From positions 930,001 through 994,000 of the forward strand of contig CM022678.1 of assembly GCA_012295275.1 (NCBI GenBank): a stretch of 64,000 nt of DNA, read 5' to 3'. The notes beneath the pieces are model-generated. The model was not told the DNA's origin, searched no databases, and was given only the letters and a program-made list of their open reading frames with translations. This stretch comes from Chrysomallon squamiferum. Its lineage: Eukaryota > Animalia > Mollusca. This document shows, piece after piece, positions 37,296 to 63,548 of the stretch; the stretch's first letter is position 1; every line of letters begins with the position of its first letter. The translations under genes and the position numbers were made by a program.

Positions 37296-37520
37296 CTAAT
37301 ATAAATTTTTCTACAGCGAGATATATTTACTGTCACTCAGGTCATAGCTGTTAATGTAGTGAATGGTGGTTTCATTTCAACCATAACAAACTATCGTTCA
37401 GCATAGCACAACATTTGTGTCAACGATAATATATATATAAAACCCAACAACAAACAAACTAATGATTAATGCGAAATGGAGTTCTGTTGTCTATTAAAAA
37501 TGTTTCAGGTTTTAACTTAC

Positions 37521-37587
37521 TGGTGTCAACAGCTTCACCTTCTGATTCAATGTTCCTGTTAGTAGATTGATTTTTATGTCTGCTCAT
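37521..37587 (-). CDS. Candidate start or linker exon upstream of STAND copy 3 (MSRHKNQSTNRNIESEGEAVDT)
   Basis: GTAAGT donor at 37520, phase 1 in the ATG frame; acceptor ambiguous. Confidence 0.4.
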
Positions 37588-38358
37588 ATTTAAATATGTT
37601 CTACCACTGCTTATGTTGTCGCAAATGTAGAAAAATAAATTATTTACATTCACAGCCTACATGTAAAACATGCATATACATGTAAGATAATGAAAATGAT
37701 GATTTTAGAAGCAGTGTTCAGAAACAGGTGAAATAAAGTTTAGCAGAGAACAGTAGATCGCAGAATCCTTGGAAGTGGACTGGCTATTGGTTGACACAGG
37801 TCACATATGACATGTGGGCTTTGCATTCTGGGCAACATTAATGGTGTCAAGAATTAAACTCAGTGTTTGATTTAATGGAAAATAAGTAGTTTTGTTAGGT
37901 AATATTTACCGATGTGGTTGGTAGAAGGTCAGCACTGAACTAAAATGACTTCTAACAGTTACTGAGTGAGCTTGGTGACGTCAACTTTTCTGTTAATCAG
38001 GTTTTATATATATAGTTAGGGTTCGAAACATTTTTCGAAACAAACAAAAACACTATTTTTATCCATATTTAGACATATGACAGCATACAGTTTCACCTAC
38101 ATACACAGTGTCTCTGTCTGAATATATTTGTGTGTAAATCTGAGTAATGCATGTCTACATCTATATTTGTCTGCATGTATGTGTTCTTTGTTCTAAGTGA
38201 TGGTAGGGGTATGTATGTTTATATGTACCCTATTTATGTACACATTTAAACGTTACTCAGTTCACAGTTTGTGAAAGAAAAATACTAACGACTACTATGT
38301 ATTCTGTTATCTATTAAACATGTAGAGAAGAAAAAACAACTTTCAGTTTTTGACTTAC

Positions 38359-41300
38359 CAGTTATATAATTATATCCTTTTTGTGTAGAACAGGAATAAA
38401 ATACGTTTGATACACGTCGACCTGCTGTGAAACAGAGTAAATACATTTTTATAATTCACAACTTCAATACACAATTTCTCAAAATTCTGAGAATTAAATA
38501 TAATTACTAAATGTATTTGCATTTTTTGAAACATGAACAAACTGTTTGTATCTATATTTAGACACATGACAGAATACAGTCTCACCTACATACACTATGT
38601 CTGTGTATGAATATATTTTCGTGAATGTCTGTGTAATGCATGTCTGCATGTATATGTGTCTGCATGTTTGTGTTCTGTGTATGTGCTAAGTGTAGCAACA
38701 GCTATATGTGATTATATGTACACTATGCATTTATGTGCACATTTCAACGTTACTCAGTTCACAGTTCGTGAGAGAAATATACAAATGACTTCTATGTATT
38801 CAGTTATCTATTAAACATGTAGAGTAGAGAACACTTTCAGCATTTAACTTACTGGTTGTGTAGTTATTTCCTATTTGTGTAGAACCGGAATGAGATTTAT
38901 TTATTTGCTGTTCTCCTGCTGTGAAACAGAAAAAATACATTTTTATAATTCATAAATTCAAGGCATAATTTCCAAAACTGCAAAATCCGGAGAATTAGAT
39001 ATAATTACTAAATATATTTCATTGTTTCAAAGAACAAAAAAACTGTTTTTATCTATATTCAGACATATGAGAGAAAACAGATTCAGATTCATAAACTGTG
39101 TCTCTGTCTGAATATATTTGCGTGTATGTCTGTGTAATGCATGTCTGCATGTATATTTGTGTGCGTGAATCTGTTCTTTTTACGTGCTGAGTGATGGTAC
39201 ATGTATGTGTGTTTGTAGGCAACCAATATGTATTTAAGTGCACATTACTACCTTCCTTAGGTCACAGTTTCTTATAGAAAAATACTAATGACTACTGTGT
39301 ATTCTGTTATCTATTAGACAAGTGGTGAAGAGAAAAACGTTCAATTCTTAACTTACAGGATATGTAGTTATTTCCTATGTGTACAGAACCGGAAGGAGAT
39401 ACAACTGAATCCTGTCCTCCTGCTGTGAAACAGAGTAAATATATTTTTGTAATTCACAACTTTAATGCACAAATTGCGAAAATAATTTAAACTTAAAAAT
39501 TCTGAAAATTAAATATAATTACTAAATGTAATAGCATTTCTTCAAACTCAAACAAACTGTTTTTATCTCCATTTAGACCTAAGAGAGAAAACCGTTTCCA
39601 GTGCCTACATTGTCTCTCTTTCTGAATATATTTGCGTGTATGTCGGTGTAATGCATGCCTGCATGTATATCTGTGTGCATGTATGTGTTCTTTGTATGTG
39701 ATAAGTCATGGTAGAGGAATGCGAGTTTATGTATACTGTCACGTTTTAGTCTATATTTAGAGATATGTTAGCATGCAGATTTATATACATACTCTGTGTC
39801 TCTGTCTGAATATATGTGCGTGTATATCTGTGTAATGCATATCTGCATATATATTGTGCGCATGTACTTGTTCTATGAAAGTGCTCAGTGATTGTAGAGT
39901 ATGTACGTCTATTTGTACCCAGTCTATGAATTTATGTTCATATTTATACGTTGCTCAGGTCACAGTTTGTGAGAGACAAATACTGATGACTACTGTGTAT
40001 TCTGTTATCTATTACACATGTAGAGAAGAGAAAACTTTCAAGTTTTAACTTACCGGATTTGTAGATGTCTCTTATTTGTGTAGATCCGGAATGAGACACG
40101 TTTGGTTGCTGTCGTCCTTCTGTGAAGCAGACCAAATACGTTGTTACAACTGACAACTTCAATGCACAGTTTCTTAAAATATTTTAAACTGGTAAATTCG
40201 GACAATTAGATATAATTTTTAAGTACATTAGACTTTTTTGGAACATGAAGAAACTGTTTTAAGCTATATTTAGAGATCTGTCGGCATTCAGATTAATATA
40301 CATACTCTGCATATCTGAAAATATTTGCGAATATGCATGTGTAATGCCTGCCTCCATATATATCGGTTTTGATGTATGTGTTTTTTGTATGTACTAAGTG
40401 ATGGTACAGGTAGGTACGTTTATACATACTCTGTCTATGCATTGATGTGCACGTTTCGACATTGCTCAGACCAAAGTGTGGTATAGAAAAGTACTAATGA
40501 CTACTGTGTTTTCTTTTACCGATTAAACATCACGTGAATAGGAAACTTCAAGCTTTTAACTTACTGGAAACATATTTATCTCCTATTTGAGAAGAACCCC
40601 AATGAGATACATCTGATTGTCCTGCTGTGAAACAGAGTAAATAATTTTTTATAATTCACAACTTTAATTCACAATTTCTCAAAATATTTGAAACTGCAAA
40701 ATTCTAAGAATTAGATTATTTACTCAATGTATTAGTATTTTTTGAAACAGAAAAAAACAATCTGAATATTTGCGTGTGTAGAGGTATATATGTTTGTATG
40801 TTCACATATGTTCACAGTCTGTGCTAGACAAATACTGATGACTACTATATATTCTGTTATCTATTAGACATGTAGAGAAGACAAAACTTTCAGCTTTTTA
40901 CTCACTGGATTCACTGTTATCTCCCATCTGAGTAGTACCGGAGTGAGATACATTTGGTTCCTGTTGTCCTCCTGTGAAACAGAGAAAATACATATTTATA
41001 ATTCAGATCTTCAATGCAGAATTTCTAAAACTATTTTTAACTGTAAAATTCTCAGAAGTAGTCAAAATTACTAAACGTATTAGCATTTTTGAAACATAAA
41101 AAACCTGTTTTTATCCATATCTACAGAAATTTTAGGATGCAGGTTCCCATACATGCATTCTGTCTCTGAATATATTTTCGAGTATATCTGTGTAATGTAT
41201 GACTACATATATATTTGTGTGCATGTATGTGTTCTTTGTATACGCTCAGTGATGGCAGAGATACGTATGTTTATATGTACCCTATCTAAGTATTTATGTG

Positions 41301-44300
41301 CACATTTCTAGGTTGCTCAGATCACGGTTTGTGAGAGGAAAATACTAATGACTGTTATGTATTCTGTTATCTATTAAACATCTAGAGAAGACAAAACTTT
41401 CAATATTTACTTACCGGATTTGTAGTTATCTCCTATTTGTATAGAACCAGAATGAGACAGGTTTAATTCCTGTTTTCCTGCTGTGAAACAAAGTAAATAC
41501 ATTTTCATGATTCACAACTTCAGTGCACAATTTCTGAACTTATTTTAAAGTGCAAAATTCTGGGAAATAGATATAATTATCAAATTTATTAGCCTTTATT
41601 GAAACATACAAACATGTTTAATCTATATTTAGAGATATGTCACCATACAGATTAACATCCATGCACTGTGTCTATAAATATATTTGTGTATATCTGTGTT
41701 TTATATGCCTACATATATATGTATGTAATCTTTATATGTGCTAAGTAATGGTACAGGTAGGTACGTTTATACATACTCTGTCTATGCATTGATGTGCACG
41801 TTTCGACATTGCTCAGATCACAGTGTGGTATAGAAAAGTACTAATGACTGCTGTGTTTTCTTTTACCGATTAAATATGTAGTGACGAGAACACTTTCAGC
41901 TTTTTACTTACTTGATTCATAGTTATCTCCTATATGTGAAGAACCGGAGTGAGATACATTTGATTCCTGTTGTCCTTCTGTGAAAGACAGTAAATACATT
42001 TTTATAATTCGCAACTTCAATTCACAATTTCTAAAAATATGTTTATCTGCAAAATTCTCAAAATAGTCGTAATTACTAAATGTATTAGCATTTCTTGAAA
42101 CATGAAACCCCGTTTTTATCCATATTTAGAGAAATGTTAGAATGCAGGTTACTATACATACACTGTGTCTGAATATATTTGCGTGTTTATCTGAATAATG
42201 CATGACTGCATATATATTTGTGTGCATGTATATTTTCTTTTTATGTGCTCAGTAATGGTAGAGGTATGTATGTTTATGTGTAACCTATCTGTTTTTATGT
42301 GCACATTTCTATGCTGTTCAGGTCATAGTTTGTGAGACAAAAATACTAATGTCTACTTTGTATTCTGATATCTATTAGACATCTAGAGAAGACAAAACTT
42401 TCAGTTTTAACTTACCAGATTTGTAGTTATCTCCTATTTGTATTGATCCGGAATGAGATACGTCTGCTTTCTGTTGTCCTGCTGTAAAACAGAGAAAATA
42501 CATTGTTACATTTAACAACTTTAGCGCAGAATTTCTGAACTTATTTTAAACTGCAAAATTCTGAGAATTAGATATAATAAATAAATGTGTTAGCATTTTT
42601 GGAAATACAAACAAACTGTTTTTATCGATATTTAGACATATGATAGGATACAGTTTCAGACGTCTGCACTGTAACTCTGTGTAATGAATGTCTCCACATA
42701 TATTTGTGTGCATGTACGTGCTCTTTGTATGTGCTAAGTGACGGTAGAGGTATGTATGTTTCCATGTACCCTATCTGTGTATTTATGTGCACATTTCTAC
42801 GTTGGTCAGGTCACAGTGTGGATAGCAAAATACTGAAGACTTCTGTGTTTTCTATTATCTATTAAACTTGAAGTGAAGAGAAAACTTTCAGTTCTTAACT
42901 TACTAGACTTATAGTTATTTCCTACTTGCATACATCTGGAATGAGATCCGTTTGATTGCTGTCGTCCTGCTGTGAAAAACAGTATATACATTTTTATAAT
43001 TGACATCTTCTATGAACAATTTCTGAAAATAGTTTTAACTGCAAGATTATGAGAATTAGATATAATTACTAAAAGTATTAGAATTCTTTGAAACGTAAAG
43101 AAACTGTTTGAATCTATAATCTATATGTCAGCATGCAGATTAACATACAGACAGTGTGTCTCTGACGATATGTGCTGTATGTCTGTGAATGGATGCCTGT
43201 ATATATATTTGTGTGGATGTGTCTCTTGATTATATGTGCTAAGTGATGGTAGAGGTATGTATCTTTATGTGGACCCAGTCTATGTATTGATGTGCCTGTT
43301 TCTACGCTTCTGAGATCACAGTGTGGGATAGAATAACACTAATGACTACTGTGTTTTCTTTTACAGGTTAAACATGTTGTGCATAGGAAACTTCGGGGTT
43401 TTTACTTCCTGGGAAAATAGTTATCTCCTTTTTGAGTAGAACCGGAATGAGAGACGTTTGGCTCCTGTTGTCCTGCTGTGAGACAGAGTAAATACACTTT
43501 TATAATTCACAACTTCAACGCACATCTGTGTAATGCATGCCTGCATAGATATTTGTGTGCATGTTTGTTTTCTTTGTATGTGCTCAGTGACGTAGCGCTT
43601 TATACGTTTATATGCTCCCAATCTATATATTTATGTCAACATTCCTACGTTGCTCAGGTCACAGCTTGTTAGACAAAAATATCAATGACTACTATGTATT
43701 CTGTTTCTATGTATTCTGATAACTTTCAATGTTTAACTTACCGGATTTGTATTTATCTCCTTTTTGTGTAGATCCGGAATGAGATACGTTTGATTGCTGT
43801 CGTCCTGCTATGAAAGAGAGTAAATACATTTTTATGATTCACATCTTCAATACCCAATTTCTGAAAATATTCTTAACTGCAATATTCTCCAGATTCGACA
43901 TAATTACTAAATGTATTGGCATTTCTTGAAACATAAAAGAATAAAATTGAATCTAATTTTGGAGACACTGTGTCTCAATGTATTTGCGTCTGTGTAATTC
44001 AGGCTAGCATATCTATGTGTGTTGATGTATGTGTTCTTTGTATGTACTAAGTGATAATACAGGTATGCTTGTTTATATTACCGTGTCTATGCATTGATAT
44101 GCCTGCTTTACGTTGCTGAGAACAATGTGGGACAGAAAAATGCTAATGACTGTTGTGTTTTCTTTTATCGATTAAACATGTAGAGAAGAGAAAAAAGTTT
44201 GAGCTTTTAACTTACTGTCAGTAGATCCGGAATGAGATACGTTTGATTGTTGTTGTCCTGCTACGAAAGATAGTAAATACATTTTTATAATTCACATCTA

Positions 44301-47300
44301 AAATGCACAGTTTCTGAAAATATTTGAAACTGTAACATTCTGAGAATTAGATATAATTTCAAATGTATTAGCATTTTGTGAAACATAAGAAACCTCTTTT
44401 TCTCTATATCTAGAGATTGATATATATACACAGTGTCTCTCAGTATATTTGCGTCTAGGTTTGTGTAATGCATATATATATATATATGTGTGTGTGCGTG
44501 TGTGTGTGTGTTTGGATATATCTTTTCTTTGTATGTGCTAATTGATGGGAGAGGTATATATGTTTATATCTACTGTGTGAATGCATTTATGTGCACGTTT
44601 CTACGTTGATTAGTTCACAGTGTGGGATAGAAAAAATACTAATGACTAGTCTCTATTCCGTTATCTATTACACATGCAGAGAAGAGAAAACTTCTAAATG
44701 TATTAGTATTTTTCGATACATGAACAACCCTGTTTTTATCGATATTTAGAGATATGTTAGCATACAGATTGACATACTACACTGTGTCTCTCTCTGAATA
44801 TGTTTGTGTGTATATCTGAGTAATGGACGTCTCTATATATATTTGTGTGCACGTATATGTTCTTTGTATGTGCTCAGTGATGTAGAGGTATGTATGTTTA
44901 TATGTACCCTATCTATGATTTCACGTGCACATTTCTACGTTCTTCAGGTTACAGCTTGTGAGAAAATAACACTAATGAATTTGTATTCTGTTATCTATTA
45001 AACATGTATGGTAGAGAAAACTTTCAATGTTTAACTTACCGGATTTGTAGTTCTCTCTTATTTGTGTAGAACCGGAAAGAGATACGTTTGATTGCTGTCG
45101 TCCTGCTGTGGTATAATGTAAACACATTTTAATAATTCACAACTTCAATGCTCAATTTCTGAAAATATTTTAAACTGTAAAGTTATGAGAATTAGATTTA
45201 ATTTCAAATGTATTAGCATTTTGTGAAACATAAGAAACCTCTTTTTCTCTATATCTAGAGATTGACATATATACACAGTGTCTCTCAGTATATTTGCGTC
45301 TAGGTTTGTGTAATGCATATATATATATATGTGTGTGTGTGTTTGGATATATCTTTCTTTGTATGTGCTATTTGATGGGAGAAGTATATATGTTTATATC
45401 TACTGTCTGATTGCATTTATGTGCATGTTTCTACGTTGATCAGATCACAGTGTGAATAGTACAACACTAATGACTACTACGTATTCTTTTATTTATTACA
45501 CATGCAGAGAAGAGAAAACTTTGAATTGTTCATTTACCAGACACGCAGGTATCTCCTATGTTTGTAGAACCGGAATGATATACGTTTGATACCCGTCTTC
45601 CTCCTGTGAAACAGAGTAAATATATTTTTCGAAATTTTCAAATTCAATTCACATATTCTGAAAATATTTTTAAGTGCAAAATTCTCGAATTGGATATAAT
45701 TACCAAAAGTATTATCATTTTTGAACGATAAAGAAACTATTTTTATCTATATTTAGAGATATGTCAGCATGCAGATTAACATACTTACACTATATCTCTG
45801 TCTCAATATATTTGCTTGTTTATGTGTGTAACGCATTTCTGCATATATATTTGATTGGATGTATGTGCTATTTCTTTGTGCTAAGTAATGGTACACGTAT
45901 TTATGTTTATATGGACCCTATCAATACTTATGTGCTCATTTCTACGTTGCCCAGGTCATAGTTGGCGATAGTAAAATACTAATGACTAGTCAGTGTTCTT
46001 TTATTGATTAAACATGTGCTGATGAGAACACTTTCAATTTTTAACTTACGGGTTGTGTAGTTATTTCCTATTTGTGTAGAACCGGAATGAGATTTGTTCA
46101 GTTTCTGTAGACTTGCTGTGAAACAGAGTAAATACATTTTTATAATTCATAAATTCAAGGCAGAATGTCTGAAAATATTTTAAACTGCAAAATTCTGAGA
46201 ATGACATATAATTATTAAACGTATTAGCATTTTTGAATGAGAAAGGAACAGTTTTAATATCTATTTAGAGATATGTCAGCATGTAGAAAGACATACATAC
46301 AGTAAGACTCTGAATATATTTGCGTATATGCCTGCATATCTATGTGTGTGAATATATGTGTTCTTTGTAAGAGCTAACTGATGGTACAGGTAGGTATGTT
46401 TATATTACAGTCTCTATGCATTTATGTGCACGTTACTACGTTGATCCGATCACAGTGTGGGATAGAAAAATACTAATGACTACTGTGTTTTCTTTTATCT
46501 ATTATACATGCAGAGAAGATAAAACTTTGAATTTTTAACTTACACGATATGAAGTTATCTCCTATTTGAGTAAAACCGGAATGAGGTACATTTGATTCCT
46601 GTATTCCTCCTGTGAGACAGAGTAAATACATTTTTACGATTCACAATATCAATGCACATTTATCAAAATATCTTAAACTGGAATATTCTGAGAATTAGGT
46701 ATAATTACTAAAAGTTATTTGCGTTTTTGGAAAGATAAAAATAAACAAATTTCTTCTATATTTAGAGATATGTTAGCATATAGATTAAAATACATACACT
46801 GTGTCTCTGTCTGAATATATGTGCGTGTATATCTGTGCAATGCAATGCATATCTGCATATATATTGTGCGCATGTACTTGTTCTTTGAAAGTGCTCAGTG
46901 ATTGTAGAGTATGTACGTCTATTTGTACCCAATCTATGAATTTATGTTCATATTTATACGTTTCTCAGGTCACAGTTTGTGAGAGACAAATACTGATGAC
47001 TACTGTGTATTCTGTTATCTATTAGACATGTAGAGATGAGAAAACTTTCAAGTTTTAACTTACCGGATTTGTAGTTGTCTCTTATTTGTGTAGATCCGGA
47101 ATGAGATACGTTTGGTTGCTGTCGTCCTTCTGTGAAGCAGACCAAATACGTTGTTACAACTGACAACTTCAATGCACAGTTTCTTAAAATATTTTAAACT
47201 GGTAAATTCGGACAATTAGATATAATTTTTAAGTACATTAGACTTTTTTGAACATGCAGATTAATATACGCACCCTGCGTATCTGAACATATTTGCGTAT

Positions 47301-50300
47301 ATATGTCTGTGTAATGCATGCCTGCATATAGATGTGTTTTGATGTATGTGCTTTTTGTATGTACTAAGTGATGGTACAGGTAGGTATGTTTATATATACT
47401 CTGTCTATGCATTGATGTGCACGTTTCGACATTGCTCAGATCACAGCGTGGTATAGAAAAGTACTAATGACTACTGTGTTTTCTTTTACCGGTTAAACAT
47501 CACGTGAATAGGAAACTTTTAGCTTTTAACTTAATTAATATGTAGTTATCTCCTATTTTAGTAGAACCGGAATGAAATACTTTTGATTGCTGTTGTCCTG
47601 CTGTGAGACAGAGTAAATACATTTTATAATTCACAACTATTGAAAATGTCTCAAGATATTTGAAAGTGCAAAATTCTAAGAATTAGATATAATTATTAAA
47701 TGTATTAGTACTTTTTGAAACAGAAAAAAACCCTGTTTTTTGACAATATTTTGAGATACGTTAGCATGGAGATTGACATATATACACTGTGTCTCTGTCT
47801 GAATATATTTGCGTTTATATCTTAGAAACACATGTATGTGGTTTTTGTTTGGTCTAAGTGATGTAGAGGTGTGTTAGTTTATATGTACCTATCTATGAAT
47901 TTAATTGCACATTTCTACGTTGCTCAGACGAGAGTTTGTGAAAGAATAAGACTAATGACTATTATATATTCTGTTTTCTATTAAACACGTAGAGTAGAGA
48001 AATCTTTCAATGTTACTTACCGGATTTGTATTTATCTCCTTTTTGTGTAGAACCGGAATGAGATACGTTTGATTCCTGTCGTCCTGCTGTGAAACAGAAT
48101 AAATATATTTTTACAATTCACAACTTAAATGTACCATTTCTGAAAATATTTAAAGTTCAAAATTCTGAGAATTAGTCATAACTAGTAAATGTATTAGCAT
48201 TTATTGAACAGTAAAGAAACTGTTTTATTTTATATTCACAGATATGTCAGCAGGTAGATTAACCTACATATACAGTGTGTCTGAATACATTTGCATATAT
48301 GTCTGTGTAATGCATATATATATATATATATGTATGCGTGTGTGTGTGTGTGTGTCGATGTATGTGCTCTTTATAATGTCGTAAGTGATGGTAGAGGTAT
48401 GTATGTTTATATTACCGTTTCTATGCATTGACATTGCTCAGTTCACAGTGAGGAATATAAAAATGCTTATGACTACTATATTTTCTTTTACCGAATAAAC
48501 ATGTACTGAAGTTAAAAATTATCTGCTGTTAACTTACCGGATTTCTTGTTATCTCCTATCTGAGTAGATCCGGAATGAGACAAGTTTGATTCCTGTTGTC
48601 CTGCTGTAAAACAGAGAAAATACATTTTTATAATTCACAACTTCAATGCACAATTTCTGAAAATATTTTAACTGGAAAATTCTCTGAATTCGATATAATT
48701 ATTAAATGAATTAACACTTTTTAAAACATAATAAACCGATTTTTTATCCATATTTAGAAATATATTAGCATGCAGATTGACATACATACACTGTTTCGAA
48801 GTCTGAATATATTTGCGTGTATGTCAGTGTAATGTATGTCTGCATATATATTTTTGTCCATGTACGTGTTCTTCGTATGTGCTCAGAGATGGTAGATGTA
48901 TGTATGTTTATATGTACCCTAACTACGTATTGATGTGCACATATCTACCTTGTTCAGGTCACAGTTGTGAGACAAAAATACTAATGAATACTATGTATTC
49001 TTATATCTATTAGATATGTAGTGAAGAGAAAACTTTCAATTTTTATCTTACCGGATTTGTAGTCGTCTCCTACGTGTTTAGAACCGGAATGAGATGCGTT
49101 TGATTGCTGTCGTCCTCCTATGAAAGATAGTAAATACATTTTCATAAATCACAACTTCAATGCACTATTTTTGACAATATTTTTAACTGCAAAATTCTGA
49201 GAATTAGATATAATTTCTAAATGTATTAGCCTTTTCTTGAAACACAAATAAACCGTTTTCATCTATATTAAAAGATATGTCATCACGCATATAAACATAC
49301 ATACACTGTTTCTCACAATATATATTGCGTATATGTTTGTGTAATGAGTGTCTTCATATATATTTGTGCGCATGTATTTGTTCTTAGTATGTGCTCAGTG
49401 TTGGTATAGGTATGTACGTTTATATGCATCCTATCTATGAATTTATGTTCACATTTCTACGTGGCTCGGGTAACAGTTTGTGAGAGAAAAATACTAATGA
49501 CTATTGTGTATTCTGATATGTGTTAGACATGTAGTGAAGAGAAAACGTTCAGTTTTAACTTACCAGATTTGTAGTTGTCTCCTATTTGTATTGATCCGGA
49601 ATGAGATACGTCTGCTTTCTGTCCTGCTGTAAAACAGAGAAAATACATTGCTACAATTCACAACTTCATTGCACAATTTCTTAAAATATTTTAAACTGTT
49701 AAATTTTGAGAATTAGATATAATTATTAAATGTATTAGATTTTTTTGAAATATGAAGAAAATGTTTTAATATATATTTACAGATATGTCAGCATGTAGAT
49801 TAACATAAATACACTGCGTATCTGAAAATATTTGCGTATGTGTCTGTGTAATTTATTCCTCCATATATATGCTATTGGATGTATCCCTATTTTTCTGTGT
49901 GTGCTAAGTGATTTTAGAGGTATGTATGTTTATCTTACCCTGTCTGTGCATTGATGTGCCTGTTTCTACGCTGGTCTGATCACAGTGTGGTATAGAAAAA
50001 TACTAATGACTACTAGACATCTAGTAAAGAGAACACTTTCAATTTTTAACTTACCGGATTTGTAATTATCTCCTATTTGTGTAGATCCGAATGAGATCCG
50101 TTTGATTGCTGTCGTCCTGCAGTAAAATAAAATAAATACATTGTTACAATTCACAACTTCAGTGCACGATTTCTGAAATGTTTTTTAAACTGCAACATTC
50201 TCAGAATTAGATATAATTACTAAATGTTTTCCATTTTCAGAAACATAAAAACCCTATTTTAATCCATATTTAGAGATATGTTAGCATGCTGTTTGACATA

Positions 50301-51879
50301 TATACACTGTGTCTCTGAATATATTTTCGTGTATAGCCTTGTAATGTATGACTGAAGTTATATCTGTGTGCATGTATGTGTTCTTTGTATGTGCTAAGTG
50401 GTGGTAGAGGTATGCATATTTATATGTACCCTATCTATGTATTTATGAGCTCATTTCTACGTTGATCAGGTCGCAGTTTGTGAGAGAAAAGTACTAATGA
50501 CTACCATGTATTTTGTTATGTATAAGGCAAGTAGAAAAGAGAAAAGTTTAAATTTTCAACTTACCGGATTTGTAGTTATCTCCTATTTGTGTAGCTTCGG
50601 ACTGAGATCCGTTTGATTGCTGTTGACCTGCTGTTATAACAGAGCGCATATATTTTTATAGTTCACAATTCAATGTAAATTTCTGAACATATTTTTAACT
50701 CCAAAATTCTGAGAATTATATATAATTCCTAAATGTAAGAGCATTTTCTGAAACATAAAGAAACAGTTTTAATATATATTTGGAATTACGTCAGGATGCA
50801 GATTAACATACGTGCTCAGTGTCTCTGAATATATTTGGGTGTATGTGTGTGTAACGCATGCTCATTTATATATGCGTGAATGTGTGTGTTAGTTTAGTGT
50901 GTAAAGTGATGGTAGCGGCATGTATGTTTGTATGTACGGTGTTTATGCATTGTGTGCTCGTTTCTACGTCGCTCAGATCACAGTGTGGGATAGAAACATA
51001 CTAATCACTACTGTGTTTGGTTTTACCAATTAAATATGTAGTAACGAGAAAACTTCGAGCTTTTGACTTACTCGATACAAAGCTATGTCCTATTTGAGTA
51101 GAACCGGAATGAGATACATTTGATTCCTGAGGTCCTGCTGTGAAACAGAGTTAATTCATTTTTATAATTCACAAATTCAATACACAATTTCTCAAGATAT
51201 TTTAAACTGCAAGTTTCTCAGCATTACATATAATTATTAAATGTATTAGCATTTTTTTAAATATAAAAATATTGTTTTTATCCATATTTAGAGACATGTT
51301 AGGATGCAGATTGACATACACACATTCTGTCTCTGTCTGAATATATTTACGTGTGTATCTGAGTAATTCATGTCTGCATATATATTTGTGTGCATGTATG
51401 TTTTCTTTGTTTGTTATAAGTGATGGTAGAGGTATGTATGTTTATGTGTACCCTATATATGTATTCGTGAGCACATTTCTACATTGTCCGGGTCACAGTT
51501 TGTGAGATAAGAATACTAATGAATACTACGTTTTCTGTTATGCATTAGACATGTAGAGAAGAGAAAACTGTCAATTTTAACTTACCTGATGTGTAGTTAT
51601 CACCTATTCGTGTAGAACTGGAATGAGATTCGTTTGATTGCCGTTGACCTCCTGTGACACACAGTAAATAAATATTTATATAATTCACAATTTCAGTTCA
51701 CAATTTCTGAAAATATTTTAAACTGCAAAAATCTGAGAATTAGATATAATTATTAAATGTATTAGCATTTTCTGAAAGAAACAAAAACCTTCTGTTATAT
51801 ATTTAGAGATATGTCAGCATTCAGATTAACATGCATACACGCCTATATGTCTGTGTAATGCATGCCTTCATATATATAC

Positions 51880-51943
<64 letters not shown>

Positions 51944-54900
51944 TGTATCTATTCTTTGTATGTGCTAAGTGATGGTACAGGTAGGTACGTTTATACATAC
52001 TCTGTCTATGCATTGATGTGCACGTTTCGACATTGCTCAGATCACAGTGTGGTATAGAAAAGTACTAATGACTGCTGTGTTTTCTTTTACCGATTAAATA
52101 TGTAGTGACGAGAACACTTTGAGATTTGTACTTACTCGATACAGAGTTATCTCCTAGCTGTGTAGAACCGAATGAGATACCTTCGACTCCTGTTGTCCTG
52201 CTATGAAACAGAGTAAATACATTTTGTAATTCACAACTTCAATTCACAATTTCTCAAAATATTTTAAACTATAAAATTCTGAGAGTTAGTTATAATAACT
52301 AAATGTACTAGCTTTATCTGAAACACAAAAAACTATTTTTCTCTATATTTAAAAAGATGTTAGCATGCAGATTGACATACATACATTGTGTCTCTCAATA
52401 TATTCGCGTGTATCTCTGTGTAATGCATGTGTGCATATATGTGTGTGTGGATGAATCTGTTCTTTGTATGTGCTAACTGATCGTAGAGGTATATATGTTT
52501 ATATTACCGTGCCTATGCATTTATGTGCATGTTTCTATGTTGATCAGATCACAGTGTGAATAGTACAACACTAATGACTACTACGTATTCTTTTATTTAT
52601 TACACATGCAGAGAAGAGAAAACTGTGAATTGTTCATTTACCAGATACGCAGTTATCTCCTATGTTTGTAGAACCGGAATGATATACGTTTGACACCTGT
52701 TCTCCTTCTGTGAAACAGAGTAAATATATTATTATAATTCACAATTTGATTCCACAGTTTCTGAAAAATGTTTAAGTGCACAATTCTCAGAATTAGACAT
52801 AAGTACCAAATGTATTAGCAATTTATGAAACACAAATAAACTGTTTTCACCTATATTTAGAGATATGTCAGCATAGAGATTAAAATACATAGACTGTGTC
52901 TGTGTCTGAATATTTTATGTGTATATATGTGTAATGCATGTCTGCAAATATATTTGTGTGCATGTACGTGTTCTTTGTATGTGCTAAGTGGTGGTAGAGG
53001 TATGTATGTTTATATGTACCCTATCTATGTATTTATGTGCACATTTCTACGTTGCTCGGGTCACAGTTGTGGTAGAAAAATACTAATGACTACTGTGTAT
53101 TCTGTTATCTATTAAACAAGTGGTGATGAGAAAAACGTTCAATTCTTAACTTACCGGATATGAAGTTATCCCCTATTTGTGTAGAACCGGAATGAGATAC
53201 CTTTAATTCCTGTTTTCCTGCTGTGAAACAAAGAAAATATATTTTTATAATTCACAACTTCAATGAACAATTTCTGAAAATATTTTAAACTGCAAAATTC
53301 TGAGAATTAGATATAATCAATAAATATATTAACATTTTTCGAAAGATAAAGAAACTGTTTTAATCTCTATTTAGATATACATCAGAATGCAGATTAACAT
53401 ACATACACTGCCTCTCTGAATATATATGCGTATATGTCTGTTGAATGTATGGCTGCATATATATGTATCCTATCTATGTATTTATGTTCACATTCCTAAG
53501 TTGCTCAGGTCATAGATTGAGATAGAAAAATACTGACTACTATGTATTCTGTCATCTATTAAACATGTAGAGAAGACAAAACTTTTAGTATTTAACCTAC
53601 TGGATATGTAGTTATCTCCTATTTGTGTAAAACCGGAATGAGGTACTTTTGATTGCAGCTCTCCTGCTGTGAAAGACAGTAAATACATTTTTATAATTCA
53701 CAAGTTCAATTGACAATTTCTGAAAATATTTTTAAGTGCAAAATTTTCAGAATTAGACATAAATGTCAAATGTATTAGCATTTTCTGTAACATAAATAAA
53801 CCGTTTTTATCAATATTTAAAAATATCTTAGCATGCATTTTGAAACACGTACATTGTGTCTCTGTCTGAATATATTTGCATGTATATGTGTAATGCATGT
53901 CTGTATATATATTTATGTGCATGCATGTGTTCTTTTTATGTTCTCAGTGATGGTATGTTCTGTTATATGGATGAATTTAAGAGCACATTTCTACGTAGCT
54001 CAGGTCACAGTTTGTGAGAGAAATATACTGATGACTACTATGTATTCCGTTATGTATTAGACATAGTAGTTACGGAATGAGATATGTTTAATTCCTGTTC
54101 TCCTGCGGTGAAACATAGTAAATATATTTTTGTAATTCACAAATTCAATTTACAATTTCTGAAAATATTTTAACCTGCAAAATTTTGAGAATTAGATATA
54201 ATTATTAAAACGATTAGGATTTTTGGAAACATAAAGATACCCTATTAATTGATATTTAGAGATATGTAATTATGTAAATTAACATATATACACTGTGTCT
54301 CTATTTGAACATATTTACGTATATGTCTGTGCAATCTTTGCCTGCATATATAACTGTGTAGATGTATCTATCCTTTGTTCGTGCTAAGTAATGGTACAGG
54401 TATTTGTGTTGATATGTACCACCTCTATGTATTTCTGTGTCGTTTCTACATTGTGCAGGTCACAGTGTGGGATAGAAAAATACTAATGACTACTGTGTTT
54501 TCTTTCAATTATTAAACATATGATTAGAAAACTTTTAACTTACTGGATACAAAATGATCTCCTATTTGAGCAGAACCGGAATGAGATACATTTGGTTCCT
54601 GTTGTCCTTCTGTGAAACAGAGTAAAAACATCTTTATAATTCACAAATTCAACTCACAATTTATGAAAATATTCTTAAGTGCAAAATTCTTACAGTTAGT
54701 CATAATTACTAAATTTATTAGTTTTTTTTTCTTTTTAAACATAAAAAAATCTGGTTTTTTCTATATTTAGAAATATATTAACATGCAGATTGACATACAT
54801 AAACTGTGTCTATATCTGATAATACATGTCTGCATATGTATTTGTGTGCATGTAAGTGTTCTTTGTACCTGCTCAGTTATGGTAGAGATATGTATGTTTA

Positions 54901-57900
54901 TATGTACCCTATCAATATTTATGTGCACATTTCACGTTGCTCAGGTAACAGTTTAAGAGAGAAAAATAGTAATGACTATTGTGTATTCTGACATCTATGA
55001 GACGTAGTGAAGAGAAAACTTTCTGTTTCTAACTTACCGGATTTGTAGTTGTCTCCTATTTGTGTAGATCCGGAATGAGACAAGTTTGCTTTCTGTTGTC
55101 CTGCTGTAAAACAGAGAAAATACATTTTTATAATTCACAACTTCAATGCACAATTTCTGAAAATATTTTAACTGGAAAATTCTCTGAATTCGATATAATT
55201 ATTAAATGAATTAACACTTTTTAAAACATAATAAACCGATTTTTTATCCATATTTAGAAATATATTAGCATGCAGATTGACATACATACACTGTTTCGAA
55301 GTCTGAATATATTTGCGTGTATGTCAGTGTAATGTATGTCTGCATATATATTTTTGTCCATGTACGTGTTCTTCGTATGTGCTCAGAGATGGTAGATGTA
55401 TGTATGTTTATATGTACCCTAACTACGTATTGATGTGCACATATCTACCTTGTTCAGGTCACAGTTGTGAGACAAAAATACTAATGAATACTATGTATTC
55501 TTATATCTATTAGATATGTAGTGAAGAGAAAACTTTCAATTTTTATCTTACCGGATTTGTAGTCGTCTCCTACGTGTTTAGAACCGGAATGAGATGCGTT
55601 TGATTGCTGTCGTCCTCCTATGAAAGATAGTAAATACATTTTCATAAATCACAACTTCAATGCACTATTTTTGACAATATTTTTAACTGCAAAATTCTGA
55701 GAATTAGATATAATTTCTAAATGTATTAGCTTTTTCTTGAAACACAAATACACCGTTTTCATCTATATTAAAAGATATGTCATCACGCATATAAACATAC
55801 ATACACTGTTTCTCTCAATATATATTGCGTATATGTTTGTGTAATGAGTGTCTTCATATATATTTGTGCGCATGTATTTGTTCTTAGTATGTGCTCAGTG
55901 TTGGTACAAGTATGTACGTTTATATGCATCCTATCTATGAATTTATGTTCACATTTCTACGTGGCTCGTGTAACAGTTTGTGAGAGAAAAATACTAATGA
56001 CTATTGTGTATTCTGATATGTGTTAGACATGTAGTGAAGAGAAAACGTTCAGTTTTAACTTACCAGATTTGTAGTTGTCTCCTATTTGTATTGATCCGGA
56101 ATGAGATACGTCTGCTTTCTGTCCTGCTGTAAAACAGAGAAAATACATTGCTACAATTCACAACTTCATTGCACAATTTCTTAAAATATTTTAAACTGTT
56201 AAATTTTGAGAATTAGATATAATTATTAAATGTATTAGATTTTTTTGAAATATGAAGAAAATGTTTTAATATATATTTACAGATATGTCAGCATGTAGAT
56301 TAACATAAATACACTGCGTATCTGAAAATATTTGCGTATGTGTCTGTGTAATTTATTCCTCCATATATATGCTATTGGATGTATCCCTTTTTTCTGTGTG
56401 TGCTAAGTGATTTTAGAGGTATGTATGTTTATCTTACCCTGTCTGTGCATTGATGTGCCTGTTTCTACGCTGGTCTGATCACAGTGTGGTATAGAAAAAT
56501 ACTAATGACTACTAGACATCTAGTAAAGAGAACACTTTCAATTTTTAACTTACCGGATTTGTAATTATCTCCTATTTGTGTAGATCCGGAATGAGATCCG
56601 TTTGATTGCTGTCGTCCTGCAGTAAAATAAAATAAATACATTGTTACAATTCACAACTTCAGTGCACGATTTCTGAAATGTTTTTAAACTGCAACATTCT
56701 CAGAATTAGATATAATTACTAAATGTTTTCCATTTTCAGAAACATAAAAAACCCTATTTTAATCCATATTTAGAGATATGTTAGCATGCTGTTTGACATA
56801 TATACACTGTGTCTCTGAATATATTTTCGTGTATAGCCTTGTAATGTATGACTGAAGTTATATCTGTGTGCATGTATGTGTTCTTTGTATGTGCTAAGTG
56901 GTGGTAGAGGTATGCATATTTATATGTACCCTATCTATGTATTTATGAGCTCATTTCTACGTTGATCAGGTCGCAGTTTGTGAGAGAAAAGTACTAATGA
57001 CTACCATGTATTTTGTTATGTATAAGGCAAGTAGAAAAGAGAAAAGTTTAAATTTTCAACTTACCGGATTTGTAGTTATCTCCTATTTGTGTAGCTTCGG
57101 ACTGAGATCCGTTTGATTGCTGTTGACCTGCTGTTATAACAGAGCGCATATATTTTTATAGTTCACAATTCAATGTAAATTTCTGAACATATTTTTAACT
57201 CCAAAATTCTGAGAATTATATATAATTCCTAAATGTAAGAGCATTTTCTGAAACATAAAGAAACAGTTTTAATATATATTTGGAATTACGTCAGGATGCA
57301 GATTAACATACGTGCTCAGTGTCTCTGAATATATTTGGGTGTATGTGTGTGTAACGCATGCTCATTTATATATGCGTGAATGTGTGTGTTAGTTTAGTGT
57401 GTAAAGTGATGGTAGCGGCATGTATGTTTGTATGTACGGTGTTTATGCATTGTGTGCTCGTTTCTACGTCGCTCAGATCACAGTGTGGGATAGAAACATA
57501 CTAATCACTACTGTGTTTGGTTTTACCAATTAAATATGTAGTAACGAGAAAACTTCGAGCTTTTGACTTACTCGATACAAAGCTATGTCCTATTTGAGTA
57601 GAACCGGAATGAGATACATTTGATTCCTGAGGTCCTGCTGTGAAACAGAGTTAATTCATTTTTATAATTCACAAATTCAATACACAATTTCTCAAGATAT
57701 TTTAAACTGCAAGTTTCTCAGCATTACATATAATTATTAAATGTATTAGCATTTTTTTAAATATAAAAATATTGTTTTTATCCATATTTAGAGACATGTT
57801 AGGATGCAGATTGACATACACACATTCTGTCTCTGTCTGAATATATTTACGTGTGTATCTGAGTAATTCATGTCTGCATATATATTTGTGTGCATGTATG

Positions 57901-58380
57901 TTTTCTTTGTTTGTTATAAGTGATGGTAGAGGTATGTATGTTTATGTGTACCCTATATATGTATTCGTGAGCACATTTCTACATTGTCCGGGTCACAGTT
58001 TGTGAGATAAGAATACTAATGAATACTACGTTTTCTGTTATGCATTAGACATGTAGAGAAGAGAAAACTGTCAATTTTTAACTTACCTGATGTGTAGTTA
58101 TCACCTATTCGTGTAGAACTGGAATGAGATTCGTTTGATTGCCGTTGACCTCCTGTGACACACAGTAAATAAATATTTATATAATTCACAATTTCAGTTC
58201 ACAATTTCTGAAAATATTTTAAACTGCAAAAATCTGAGAATTAGATATAATTATTAAATGTATTAGCATTTTCTGAAAGAAACAAAAACCTTCTGTTATA
58301 TATTTAGAGATATGTCAGCATTCAGATTAACATGCATACACGCCTATATGTCTGTGTAATGCATGCCTTCATATATATAC

Positions 58381-58446
<66 letters not shown>

Positions 58447-61400
58447 TGTATCTATTCTTTGTATGTGCTAAGTGATGGTACAGGTAGGTACGTTTATACA
58501 TACTCTGTCTATGCATTGATGTGCACGTTTCGACATTGCTCAGATCACAGTGTGGTATAGAAAAGTACTAATGACTGCTGTGTTTTCTTTTACCGATTAA
58601 ATATGTAGTGACGAGAACACTTTGAGATTTGTACTTACTCGATACAGAGTTATCTCCTAGCTGTGTAGAACCGGAATGAGATACCTTCGACTCCTGTTGT
58701 CCTGCTATGAAACAGAGTAAATACATTTTTGTAATTCACAACTTCAATTCACAATTTCTCAAAATATTTTAAACTATAAAATTCTGAGAGTTAGTTATAA
58801 TAACTAAATGTACTAGCTTTATCTGAAACACAAAAAACTATTTTTCTCTATATTTAAAAAGATGTTAGCATGCAGATTGACATACATACATTGTGTCTCT
58901 CAATATATTCGCGTGTATCTCTGTGTAATGCATGTGTGCATATATGTGTGTGTGGATGAATCTGTTCTTTGTATGTGCTAACTGATCGTAGAGGTATATA
59001 TGTTTATATTACCGTGCCTATGCATTTATGTGCATGTTTCTATGTTGATCAGATCACAGTGTGAATAGTACAACACTAATGACTACTACGTATTCTTTTA
59101 TTTATTACACATGCAGAGAAGAGAAAACTGTGAATTGTTCATTTACCAGATACGCAGTTATCTCCTATGTTTGTAGAACCGGAATGATATACGTTTGACA
59201 CCTGTTCTCCTTCTGTGAAACAGAGTAAATATATTATTATAATTCACAATTTGATTCCACAGTTTCTGAAAAAATGTTTAAGTGCACAATTCTCAGAATT
59301 AGACATAAGTACCAAATGTATTAGCAATTTATGAAACACAAATAAACTGTTTTCACCTATATTTAGAGATATGTCAGCATAGAGATTAAAATACATAGAC
59401 TGTGTCTGTGTCTGAATATTTTTATGTGTATATATGTGTAATGCATGTCTGCAAATATATTTGTGTGCATGTACGTGTTCTTTGTATGTGCTAAGTGGTG
59501 GTAGAGGTATGTATGTTTATATGTACCCTATCTATGTATTTATGTGCACATTTCTACGTTGCTCGGGTCACAGTTGTGGTAGAAAAATACTAATGACTAC
59601 TGTGTATTCTGTTATCTATTAAACAAGTGGTGATGAGAAAAACGTTCAATTCTTAACTTACCGGATATGAAGTTATCCCCTATTTGTGTAGAACCGGAAT
59701 GAGATACCTTTAATTCCTGTTTTCCTGCTGTGAAACAAAGAAAATATATTTTTATAATTCACAACTTCAATGAACAATTTCTGAAAATATTTTAAACTGC
59801 AAAATTCTGAGAATTAGATATAATCAATAAATATATTAACATTTTTCGAAAGATAAAGAAACTGTTTTAATCTCTATTTAGATATACATCAGAATGCAGA
59901 TTAACATACATACACTGCCTCTCTGAATATATATGCGTATATGTCTGTTGAATGTATGGCTGCATATATATGTATCCTATCTATGTATTTATGTTCACAT
60001 TCCTAAGTTGCTCAGGTCATAGATTGAGATAGAAAAATACTGACTACTATGTATTCTGTCATCTATTAAACATGTAGAGAAGACAAAACTTTTAGTATTT
60101 AACCTACTGGATATGTAGTTATCTCCTATTTGTGTAGAACCGGAATGAGGTACTTTTGATTGCTGCTCTCCTGCTGTGAAAGACAGTAAATACATTTTTA
60201 TAATTCACAAGTTCAATTGACAATTTCTGAAAATATTTTTAAGTGCAAAATTTTCCGAATTAGACATAAATGTCAAATGTATTAGCATTTTCTGTAACAT
60301 AAATAAACCGTTTTTATCAATATTTAAAAATATCTTAGCATGCATTTTGAAACACGTACATTGTGTCTCTGTCTGAATATATTTGCATGTATATGTGTAA
60401 TGCATGTCTGTATATATATTTATGTGCATCCATATGTTCTTTGTATGTTCAGAGTAAATAATTTTTATAATTCACAACTTCAATGCCCAGTTTTTGAAAA
60501 TATTTTAAACTATAGAATTCTGAGAATTAGATATAATTATTAAATTTATTATTATTTTTCGAAACGTAAAGAAACTGTTTTAATCTATATTTACAGACAT
60601 GTCAGCGTGCAGATTAACACACATACACTGTTATTTCTATATGTAACTTTCTTTATCTATATGTAGAGATATGACAGCCTGCAGTTTAATATATATACAC
60701 CGTGTCTCTGTTTGAATATATTTGTGTGCATGTCTGTGTATGGATGTCTGCATATACATTTACAGGTATGTATGTTTATATGTACTCTGTCTATGTATGT
60801 TTATATGTACTCTGTCTATATATGTTTATATGTACTGTGTTTGTATATGTCTATATGTACTGTGTCTACGTATGTTTATATGTACTGTGTCTATGTATGG
60901 TTATATGTACTGTGTCTATATATGTTTGTACATACTGTGTCTATATATGTTTATATGTACTGTGTCTCTGTAGTTATGTGCACGTTTGTATGTTTTTCAG
61001 GTCACAGTGTGTGGCGGATAATTACTAATCACTACTATGTATTCTGTTATCAATTAAACAGGTAGACAAGAGAAAACATTTAGTTTTTGACTTACTGGAT
61101 TCCCAATTTTCTCCTATTTGTGTAGAACCGGAATAAAATGGGTTTGATAGCTGATGTCTGGCTGTGAAGCAGATTAAACACATATTTATAATTCACAACT
61201 TCAATGCACAGTTTCCGAAAATATTTTTAACAGCAAAATTTAGTGTGGGATAGAAAGATAGTAATAATTATTGTGTTTTCTTTTTCCTGATAAACATGTA
61301 GAGAAGAGAAAACTTTCAGTTTTTAACTTACCGGATTCCCAAATTTCTCCTATTTGTGTAGAACTGGAATGAAATGGGTTTGATAGCTGATGTCTGACTG

Positions 61401-63548
61401 TGAAACAGATTAAACACATATTTATAATTCACAACTTCAATACACAATTTCTGAAAGACTTTTTACGCTACAGATTCTGAATTAATTCTTAAATGTAGTA
61501 GCACTTTTTGAAGCAGGAAACACTGTTTTTAATCGATATGTAGAGATATGACAGCATGTTCTGCTTGAATATATCTGAGTGTATGTGTATATGTATATTT
61601 GTGCATATGTATCGATTCTGTGTTTCTGCTAAGTGTAGATACAGGTCTGTGTGATTATATGTATTGTGTCTATACATAGAGTGTGTGACGTAAAAATACT
61701 AATCACAACTATGTATTCTGGTATCTATTAAACATGTAGACACGAGAAAACTTTTAGTTTTTAGCTTACCGGATTCTTCGTTGTCTTCTGTTTCAGTAGA
61801 ATCAGAATCAGATTCTTCTGCTGGGGACTTTCCTAGAATGAAAAATAGTGAATACATTTTTATAATTCGTAATTTCTTTATGCCTAATTTCTCCAAAAAA
61901 TGTTTGACCTACAACATTCTGAGAGTTATATACTACTGTAAAATGATCTAGTACTTTTTGAAAGAGAAAAACGAATATTTTTATCTATATGTAGAGATAT
62001 GACAGCATACAGTTTAACATATATAGACTGCGTCTCTGTTTGAATATATTTATGTGTATGTTTGTGTAATGCATGTGTACATGCGTATGTGTGTGTGTAT
62101 GTTTCTGTCCTGTGCTAAGTCTGGGTACAGGTATAGGTTCATATGTACTGTGTCTATGCATGTTTATATTTACTGTGTCTATGTTTGTTTATATTTACTG
62201 TGTCTATGTATTTATGTGCACGTTTCTATTTGTTCAAGTCACAGTTTTGTGAGAGAAAAATACTAATCACTACTATGAATTCTGTTATCAATGAAACAGG
62301 TAGACCAGAGAAAAGTTTCAGCTTTTAACTTACTGGATTCGGGGTCATCTTCTGTTTGATTAGAATCGGAATCAGATACATCTGCTGGTACCGGATCTGT
62401 AGTGAAACAAAGTAAATACTTTTTTTATAATTAGCAACTTCAATGTATAATTTCTGAAAATATTTCTACCTCAAACATAGATATAATTGTTGGATATAGT
62501 AGCACTTTTTTTAATCACAAAAAACTTTTTTTATCTATATGTAGAGATATGACAGCCTGCAGTTTAATATATATACACCGTGTCTCTGTTTGAATATATT
62601 TGTGTGCATGTCTGTGTATGGATGTCTGCATATACATTTATAGGTATGTCTTTTTATATTTACTGTGTCTATGTATGTTTATATGTACTGAGTTTATGTA
62701 TGTCTATATGTACTGTGTCTATATATGTTTATATGTACTCTGTCTATGTATGTTTATATGTACTCTGTCTATATATGTTTATATGTACTGTGTTTGTATA
62801 TGTCTATATGTACTGTGTCTACGTATGTTTATATGTACTGTGTCTATGTATGGTTATATGTACTGTGTCTATATATGTTTGTACATACTGTGTCTATATA
62901 TGTTTATATGTACTGTGTCTCTGTAGTTATGTGCACGTTTGTATGTTTTCAGGTCACAGTGTGTGGCGGATAATTACTAATCACTACTATGTATTCTGTT
63001 ATCAATTAAACAGGTAGACAAGAGAAAACATTTAGTTTTTGACTTACTGGATTCCCAATTTTCTCCTATTTGTGTAGAACCGGAATAAAATGGGTTTGAT
63101 AGCTGATGTCTGGCTGTGAAACAGATTAAACACATAATTATAATTCACAACTTCAATACACAATTTCTGAAAGACTTTTTACGCTACAGATTCTGAATTA
63201 ATTCTTAAATGTAGTAGCACTTTTTGAAGCAGGAAACACTGTTTTTAATCGATATGTAGAGATATGACAGCATGTTCTGCTTGAATATATCTGAGTGTAT
63301 GTGTATATGTATATTTGTGCATATGTATCGATTCTGTGTTTCTGCTAAGTGTAGATACAGGTCTGTGTGATTATATGTATTGTGTCTATACATAGAGTGT
63401 GTGACGTAAAAATACTAATCACAACTATGTATTCTGGTATCTATTAAACATGTAGACACGAGAAAACTTTTAGTTTTTAGCTTACCGGATTCTTCGTTGT
63501 CTTTTGTTTCAGTAGAATCAGAATCAGATTCTTCTGCTGGGGACTTTT
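38359..63548 (-). CDS. Array of ~50 tandem symmetric (phase 1-1) micro-exons, mostly 66 nt, encoding a 22-aa repeat (consensus AGQQxSNVSHSGSTQIGDNYKS); continues beyond the window
   Basis: Each ~0.5-kb unit has tttcacag|CAGGA...ATCCG|gtaagtt on the minus strand. Examples: 38359-38424, 38853-38918, 39357-39422, 40054-40119, 40565-40624, 40906-40971, 41415-41480, 41912-41977, 42416-42481, 42904-42969, 43742-43807, 44216-44260, 45040-45105, 45538-45603, 46050-46115, 46544-46609, 47064-47129, 48021-48086, 48538-48603, 49052-49117, 49564-49626, 50565-50630, 51072-51137, 51586-51651, 52642-52707, 53155-53220, 53601-53666, 54544-54609, 55038-55103, ...60108-60173, 61096-61161, 61332-61397, 61770-61832, 62334-62396, 63048-63113, 63486-63548. 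I found no stop codon in the phase-1 frame of any copy I translated. Confidence 0.82.
48570..60430. repeat. Recent near-identical duplication, ~48570-53930 repeated at ~55070-60430 (offset ~6500)
   Basis: Identical ORF-track peptides at 48813/55313, 52927/59434 and 53698/60205; line-by-line identity. Confidence 0.93.

Follow-up and report, generated by a model that had tools for sequence, protein, structure and literature searches.

Can a stretch of DNA that looks like a satellite encode the N-terminus of an NLR-like protein, and what would such an N-terminus do? The question is raised by a window of 64,000 nt of AT-rich animal DNA from the snail Chrysomallon squamiferum (Mollusca; GenBank assembly GCA_012295275.1, contig CM022678.1, positions 930,001 to 994,000), to which all coordinates below refer. 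On its minus strand, a tandem array of ~0.5-kb units lies upstream of an exon for a STAND NTPase with ankyrin repeats. An initial annotation had taken the units for cassette exons of this gene. Our favored explanation, to which we assign a probability of roughly 0.45, is that the array consists of ~50 duplicated phase-1 coding exons under selection, placed head to tail onto an nSTAND3-ankyrin exon, which would thereby gain a multivalent amyloid-like N-terminus. Long coding regions of immune genes can pass as 'satellite' and drop out of annotation. The architecture is not described in the full-text literature that we searched, where most subscription journals fall outside the coverage.

Architecture of the array

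The array and its parts are the following:

38359..63548, minus strand: tandem exon array of 50 units; exon of 66 nt in phase 1-1, with variants of 63, 60 and 45 nt
38359..38424, minus strand: final intact array exon, whose donor phase fits the STAND acceptor 1453 nt downstream
61770..63548, minus strand: distal, more diverged units; units 63548, 62396 and 61832 are 63-nt acidic exons with the +3 AG and without the RHIM-like core
48651-53700 and 55151-60207, no strand assigned: two copies of an internally duplicated 10-unit block, 99.6% identical; they differ by 8 substitutions and 11 gap positions

A profile search combined with a fuzzy splice-site scan of the window recovered 50 units of ~0.5 kb, in accordance with the ~50-member minus-strand array of phase 1-1 exons proposed initially. 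The acceptor AG is present in 47 of the 50 units, the donor GT likewise in 47, a length divisible by three in 48, and an open frame in 47; all four features are combined, in phase 1-1, in 44 units, whose exons sum to 954 codons. The remaining six units are defective: a frameshift stop is present in 52200 and 50119, both of 65 nt, 54105 is half deleted, 56619 has lost its first AG, and 47600 and 43475 have lost the GT. According to the initial annotation, none of the units translated has an in-frame stop; this holds for 47 of the 50 but not for the two 65-nt units. The exon ends it listed (40565, 44216, 49564, 61770, 62334, 63486, and 38359) proved correct on recheck, and so did the length variants of 60, 45, and 63 nt, the donor variants, and the switch between CAG and TAG acceptors.

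A second AG, located three bases inside the exon, is retained in 33 of 34 units examined. It could act as a frame-keeping alternative acceptor, and it serves as the acceptor in the three acidic distal units. Introns within the array mostly measure 400-450 nt. Array-type intron sequence carries on up to the end of the window, and the array runs beyond it.

The 10-unit duplication is recent, and its near-identical units are therefore not independent. Because all 11 gap positions between its copies fall in homopolymer or dinucleotide runs, the two 65-nt exons, both located in one copy, are probably assembly errors. The distal part of the array (60500-64000) shows a second, older duplication of ~1.7 kb (97%) and 25-bp minisatellites expanding in introns. 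Concerning base composition, the CpG observed/expected ratio is 0.55 in array introns, the window is otherwise strongly CpG-depleted, and CpG transitions in the array run at ~2-2.6 times background. Tandem Repeats Finder recovers just a small part of the array. An Rfam scan of 33000-64000 gave no match, nor did a metagenome scan with the exon DNA pattern.

Selection for frame and splice sites

For the comparison with neutral evolution, 33 distinct 66-nt exons were retained; the 17 units dropped are unit 54105, the two 65-nt exons, seven exact duplicates, and seven length variants that keep the frame. None of the 33 exons has a stop in the coding frame, whereas each of the other five frames has a stop in 25-33 exons. 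The neutral simulation started at the consensus and followed the unit tree at intron rates under a simple HKY model without gene conversion. Its mean was 17 exons with a stop, and none of 3000 runs yielded zero. Splice-site losses are depleted as well, with one AG lost against 10.5 simulated and two GTs against 10.9. Of five indel events in exons, three are multiples of three; of 69 in introns, 12 are. The purifying-selected, frame-preserving exon array claimed by the initial annotation is therefore borne out, and the units are almost certainly real coding exons.

DNA identity is alike in exons (77%) and introns (75-76%), and omega (dN/dS) of the array exons, 0.62-0.67, is only modestly below one (log-likelihood difference 2.7); two STAND copies yield a similar value of 0.70. 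Since exon DNA is no better conserved than intron DNA and omega is this high, selection on the array acts mainly on frame, absence of stops, and splice sites.

Splicing of array-type exons in RNA

RNA contigs were taken from three runs of one study, which contain 3-5% of the window's words, and were aligned at 85% likeness on 33500-48400. The STAND exon is deeply covered by many paralogous contigs, the array thinly. We consider here 12 of 20 splice joints, eight of which fall in the array, together with 15 of 66 joints from a second set. At four of the eight array joints, both sides lie in exons and an array-type exon is joined to an array-type exon. The numbers of letters at these joints are 8, 28, 32, and 38; clean exon-exon splicing would require 8, 28, 32, and 41. 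One of the joints stops exactly at the acceptor 42481. Inspected by eye, a loose contig end at 43753 looks like the end of one more exon running into the start of an exon. In their letters the joints depart from the window, and the RNA therefore comes from other family copies or other animals. Splicing in this family thus uses the predicted boundaries and joins array-type exons together. Because the exonic joints link two array-type exons, tandem use is very probable compared with the choice of one exon out of N.

The nSTAND3-ankyrin gene and its copies

Three copies of the downstream gene are found in the window, the second and third within 17640-24002 (minus strand):

34351..36905, minus strand: copy 1; nSTAND3 NTPase, helical region and ankyrin exon, 850 open codons
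17640..22832, minus strand: copy 2; nSTAND3-ankyrin with a long ankyrin tail, spread over four frames in the assembly
23604..23956, minus strand: copy 3; truncated, internally deleted nSTAND3 fragment
25125..25192, minus strand: copy 3, candidate exon with the ATG; phase 1 at its end
24619..24808, minus strand: lone degenerate array-type unit of copy 3; a 63-nt open segment without GT donor, then an array-type intron (E 3.1e-15)
24234..24266, minus strand: link exon of copy 3, 33 nt, phase 1-1; 20 of 26 letters match RNA spliced to a paralogous STAND exon

By its motifs and predicted fold, copy 1 is an NLR-like STAND NTPase of the nSTAND3 type. Pfam matches PF20720 (E 7e-25, 87.9 bits against a cut-off of 27.2) as well as ankyrin repeats. 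The motifs at residues 37, 83, 121, 194, and 311 are those that we take to be Walker A, Walker B, sensor-1, GxP, and winged-helix; F196-P197 and Y311-F313-H315 are unvarying across 15 sequences. The predicted structure (pLDDT 80) has an archaeal AAA+ ATPase as its top match. Further matches, NB-ARC and NACHT structures among them, include NRC1 NB-ARC, SAMD9, NLRP14, Avs5, and Apaf-1 (E between 7e-6 and 9e-5); their TM-scores are modest. Ligand-triggered oligomerization and an immune function would be in line with what is known of the family.

Near 34368, copy 1 is missing 5 nt that are present in copy 2 and in RNA paralogs, which results in an early stop. Decayed ankyrin sequence follows past the stop, with further lesions within 300 nt, and the 850 preceding codons are clean. 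Copy 1 thus seems to be a live but shortened sensor; it is possibly a young pseudogene. RNA contigs reveal many more expressed paralogs, and the nSTAND3-ankyrin family is therefore expanded.

The closest relatives are proteins of the gastropods Gigantopelta and Haliotis with 28-45% identity. Five of the six long gastropod relatives retrieved have short tandem repeats before nSTAND3. The array repeat profile found no match in the N-termini of 14 STAND relatives, the N-terminal stretches of five relatives gave no RHIM or HET-S match in Pfam, and a metagenome scan with the STAND protein yielded no match. Upstream of the ATG exon of copy 3, at ~25950-26420 (minus strand), a ~100-bp segment occurs twice, each time followed by GTAAGT; these may be duplicated 5' untranslated exons.

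Probable linkage of the array to the STAND exon

The initial annotation placed a phase-1 acceptor at 36906 and a gap of ~1.5 kb between it and the array. Both were correct; the gap is 1453 nt. Features in it include the following:

37450..37625, minus strand: diverged array-type donor (37520) with intron, E 1.1e-4; 34 codons upstream of it are open and include an ATG near 37587
37223..37295, minus strand: orphan phase-1 donor (37222), preceding the conserved pre-STAND intron
37595..38006, no strand assigned: ~410-bp insertion unrelated to the array, matched by RNA contigs

Strand and phase are compatible across the gap, and splicing 38359 directly to 36905 would keep the frame. At ~600 bp from the STAND acceptor lies a stretch (37529-37450) with array-type donor and intron. 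The neighboring copy 3 is ordered as an ATG exon (phase 1), the degenerate array-type unit, the 33-nt link exon, and STAND, and holds an array-type intron between ATG exon and link exon (E 3e-15). In RNA, a paralogous STAND exon is spliced to a link-type exon, for which the copy 3 link exon (20 of 26 letters) is the best match in the window. On the basis of phase and of the array-type intron at the matching position in the paralog, the array is probably linked to the STAND gene. Of the linkage claimed initially, the strand and phase fit and the paralogous intron speak in its favor, but the junction appears in no read. On the proposed route via 37521/37223, neither donor has a good in-frame acceptor.

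The insertion at 37595-38006 is probably an interspersed repeat and possibly a small non-autonomous transposon. A TATATATA run lies close to its start, and its sequence occurs in transcripts in other contexts; terminal repeats were sought for this element and not found. A reading of it as a promoter was dropped: beyond either end of the element, the RNA contigs that match it continue into unlike sequence.

A repeat peptide in the RHIM/HET-s register

Each exon encodes 21 residues plus a junction residue, i.e., a 22-residue unit rich in Ser, Gly, Gln, and Asn (474 of 910 residues). The best-conserved positions are V7, S10, Q14, I15, G16, D17, and N18, which follow the RHIM/HET-s register with TQIGDN. 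This character of the peptide is new here and was absent from the initial annotation. Two exons stand out:

41415..41480, minus strand: best RHIM exon; IQIG tetrad and all four aliphatic positions, PF12721 E 0.098, 12.7 bits against 20
39357..39422, minus strand: best HET-S exon; PF17108 E 0.006, 16.9 bits against 24.3

When 33 exon peptides were scanned at E up to 10 against the 24,736 models of Pfam, the sole families matched were HET-S PF17108 (two peptides, E 0.006 and 0.077), presumably a model of the HET-s-like N-terminal motif, and RHIM PF12721 (one peptide, E 0.098). Among the 44 intact exons, x-Q-hydrophobic-G occurs in 25, most commonly as TQIG (16 of 44). G16 is present in 34 of 37 units and is followed by Asp or Asn in 30 of 37; position 1 of the tetrad is Thr in 29 of 37. 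The consensus Q-I-G-D-N aligns with Q459-V460-G461-D462-N463 of RIPK3 (numbering as in 10.64898/2026.02.19.706818). The canonical RHIM tetrad is given as (V/I)-Q-(V/I/L/C)-G (PMC13506858), and aliphatic residues at offsets -8, -6, 0, and +2 are described as essential for RHIM nucleation (10.64898/2026.02.19.706818). By definition, the units are consequently not RHIMs; as far as sequence allows us to judge, they would be weak variants in the RHIM/HET-s register. There is no further motif exon elsewhere in the 64-kb window, and no effector partner was seen in it.

Two Gigantopelta nSTAND3-ankyrin proteins, both assigned to family PF28177, carry a single RHIM-like tetrad shortly before the NTPase (residues 9-13 and 62-66, respectively). 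A RHIM-like pattern devised post hoc, with 2 occurrences in 2694 N-terminal residues versus 1 in 17,368 others, was too weak to be used.

A proposed multivalent N-terminus and its alternatives

According to our favored explanation, the array exons would be spliced in series onto nSTAND3-ankyrin, with an N-terminus likely of up to ~950 residues. The ~1000-residue repeat N-terminus suggested initially is supported by the exon-exon joints, by the repeat N-termini of gastropod relatives, and by the array-type intron of the paralog, but the decisive junction was unseen in the reads. The NLR-like sensor would oligomerize upon ligand binding, and its many motifs, each of them weak but all covalently linked, would come together in a seed of beta-solenoid or cross-beta structure. 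This seed could then template a partner with a compatible motif, as NWD2 does to HET-S, the weakness of the motifs being offset by their number. Unequal crossing-over, as in the 10-unit duplication, and possibly exon skipping would tune the number and sequence of repeats; exons can be gained, lost, or skipped in this way because no exon causes a frameshift. Provided that the linkage holds, we lean towards an amyloid-type role. If true, dozens of RHIM/HET-s-like units on a mollusc STAND sensor would constitute a natural variant series for avidity replacing motif strength.

A number of observations count against this explanation, and we begin with those on the peptide. All Pfam matches remain under the curated cut-offs, and 30 of the 33 peptides have no match. 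The canonical RHIM tetrad is found in just 4 of 44 intact exons; all four aliphatic positions are present in 1 of 43 exons, three in 6, and two in 21. The repeat profile matched no RHIM or HET-s structure in the PDB, where its matches were chance hits to antibody complementarity-determining regions. It found no true relative among 1.8 billion protein representatives, the single match being an unrelated 26-residue repeat, and no usable relative in the ESM Atlas. The weak amino-acid constraint points in the same direction.

In a second reading, the array still encodes the N-terminal part of the STAND-ankyrin protein, which would however serve as a phase-separating tail or as a long spacer, disordered and rich in Ser, Gly, Gln, and Asn; its likeness to RHIM would be a decayed relic or a compositional coincidence. 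The composition, an omega of about 0.65, and the predominance of Thr at the first tetrad position would all fit, as would the three acidic distal exons without core and the unrelated low-complexity repeats of 10-15 residues that relatives carry at the same position. Conservation, however, is position-specific and tracks the RHIM register (V7, Q14, I15, G16, D17, N18), and two amyloid-motif families are the sole Pfam matches, although composition may account for these. We consider a disordered tail unlikely, though a serious contender.

The other objections to a multivalent STAND N-terminus concern RNA and linkage. In none of the RNA contigs (33500-48400) is an array exon joined to the STAND exon, and 255-nt loose ends upstream of a paralogous STAND exon match no array sequence at 85%. 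The other four of the eight array joints fall in introns, which means that the contigs include unspliced or genomic sequence as well, and the exonic joints may stem from other copies or animals, possibly from other loci. Between array and STAND exon, the donors 37520 and 37222 have no good acceptor, the ATG near 37587 shares the frame of the STAND exon, the probable interspersed repeat at 37595-38006 is inserted, and an (AATA)n run at 37033-37102 provides potential poly(A) signals that could end a transcript. The CpG observed/expected ratio is 0.90 in array exons versus 0.10 in the STAND exon. Finally, copy 1 is C-terminally truncated, with only a few ankyrin repeats before its premature stop.

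In a third reading, the array would be a separate upstream gene, or would have been severed from the STAND exon by the repeat insertion, and would encode a repeat-only protein in the manner of a Pirk-like decoy or scaffold, with STAND starting at the ATG near 37587. The unseen junction, the broken acceptors, the in-frame ATG before the 37520 donor, the poly(A)-like run, and the CpG contrast all agree with it, and Pirk is a precedent for several RHIM-like 18-residue repeats without an NTPase (PMC4262963). Against it stand the array-type intron between ATG exon and link exon of copy 3, the in-frame direct splice from 38359 to 36905, and the fact that the acceptors listed include no convincing terminal exon. 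To us, a separate gene is improbable, slightly more so than a disordered tail.

A bolder version of the multivalent N-terminus would treat the array as a library of ~50 separately spliced amyloid motifs, in which combinatorial skipping and exon turnover set the number and choice of motifs on each receptor and thereby its nucleation threshold and partner specificity. We hold this to be distinctly doubtful; if true, it would amount to a splice-tunable amyloid signaling cassette and a second animal signaling-amyloid family beside canonical RHIM.

Mutually exclusive splicing of the Dscam type was also suggested initially, with one of ~50 exons per transcript conferring variable N-terminal specificity. 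Docking and selector elements that are complementary to each other are a feature of Dscam-type clusters; between the unit consensus and the downstream intron we found no complement of at least 10 nt, the upstream flank lying beyond the window. The introns, mostly 400-450 nt long, would impose no steric block. All four exonic RNA joints considered, although from other family copies and maybe other loci, link two array-type exons. Thus, in spite of ~50 same-phase paralogous exons in tandem with variable residues, and of the 48 alternatives of Dscam exon 6 (PMC12074976), this mode is very improbable. That the array is a neutrally evolving satellite or minisatellite, derived from an exon-intron unit and out of use, is scarcely credible: equal exon and intron identities and six broken units would suit it, but the depletion of stops and splice-site losses, by which the simulation has already largely refuted it, the frame-keeping indels, and the spliced RNA joints do not.

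Comparison with known systems

Amyloid-templating NLRs are established in fungi and bacteria, and animal examples are few; whether RHIM is the sole animal signaling amyloid is posed as an open question in a review (PMC7889193). In fungi, the N-terminal amyloid motif of an NLR passes the signal on by acting as a template for an effector, a 21-residue repeat forming one rung (PMC7889193; PMC9815663), compared with 22 residues in the snail, and in both, G[DN] follows the core. The order of amyloid motif, STAND, and ankyrin repeats is known from fungi and one amphioxus protein: NWD2/HET-S, FNT1/HELLF, and PNT1/HELLP as well as amphioxus RHIM-NACHT BF82280 share with the snail locus the succession of motif, STAND NTPase, and repeat sensor, ankyrin included (PMC4262963; PMC7889193; PMC9815663). 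These sensors carry one motif and their effectors two or three, whereas the snail array has ~44-50 degenerate copies, one per exon, and the NTPase is nSTAND3 instead of NACHT or NB-ARC.

With the RHIMs of RIPK1, RIPK3, ZBP1, and TRIF the snail repeat has in common the Q-[IV]-G-D-N core and, six positions ahead of it, an aliphatic residue. In contrast, its first tetrad residue is mostly Thr, its -8 position mostly Ser, and its scores stay below cut-off. RHIM arrays, where PMC4262963 reports them, comprise two or three copies, a number far exceeded in the snail. Drosophila Pirk/Rudra is likewise an immune protein with partial RHIM-like repeats, several of them in tandem (PMC4262963), but Pirk acts as an inhibitor, its repeats are 18 residues long, and it lacks a STAND domain.

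Schistosome MEGs resemble the array in having many short symmetric exons that can be dropped without frameshift (PMC8293314). MEG exons of at most 36 nt, however, make up whole host-exposed parasite proteins (PMC8293314), while the snail exons, symmetric as well but too long for this definition at 45-66 nt, precede an intracellular NTPase. Arthropod Dscam1 shares a tandem cluster of dozens of duplicated exons and differs in that array-type exons are joined to each other in snail-family RNA and immunoglobulin domains are missing. The nearest parallels in domain order are the uncharacterized proteins LOC121387078 and LOC121373407 of Gigantopelta aegis and LOC124253630 of Haliotis, with 30-45% identity over the NTPase region and repeat-rich N-termini; their repeats span 10-15 residues and less than 300 residues in total and are unlike the snail array repeat.

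Other features of the window

Exons with a Ras-family domain and a DnaJ domain are located at 5934-10929 (plus strand). They probably belong to one Rab-plus-DnaJ gene, which we take to be DNAJC27-like. The start of its DnaJ-coding last exon occurs in three copies, within 132-bp tandem units (10494-10854) that each contain an acceptor. Ordinary minisatellites at 4161-5848 (20-bp units) and 7213-9298 (37/52-bp units) produce long spurious open reading frames.

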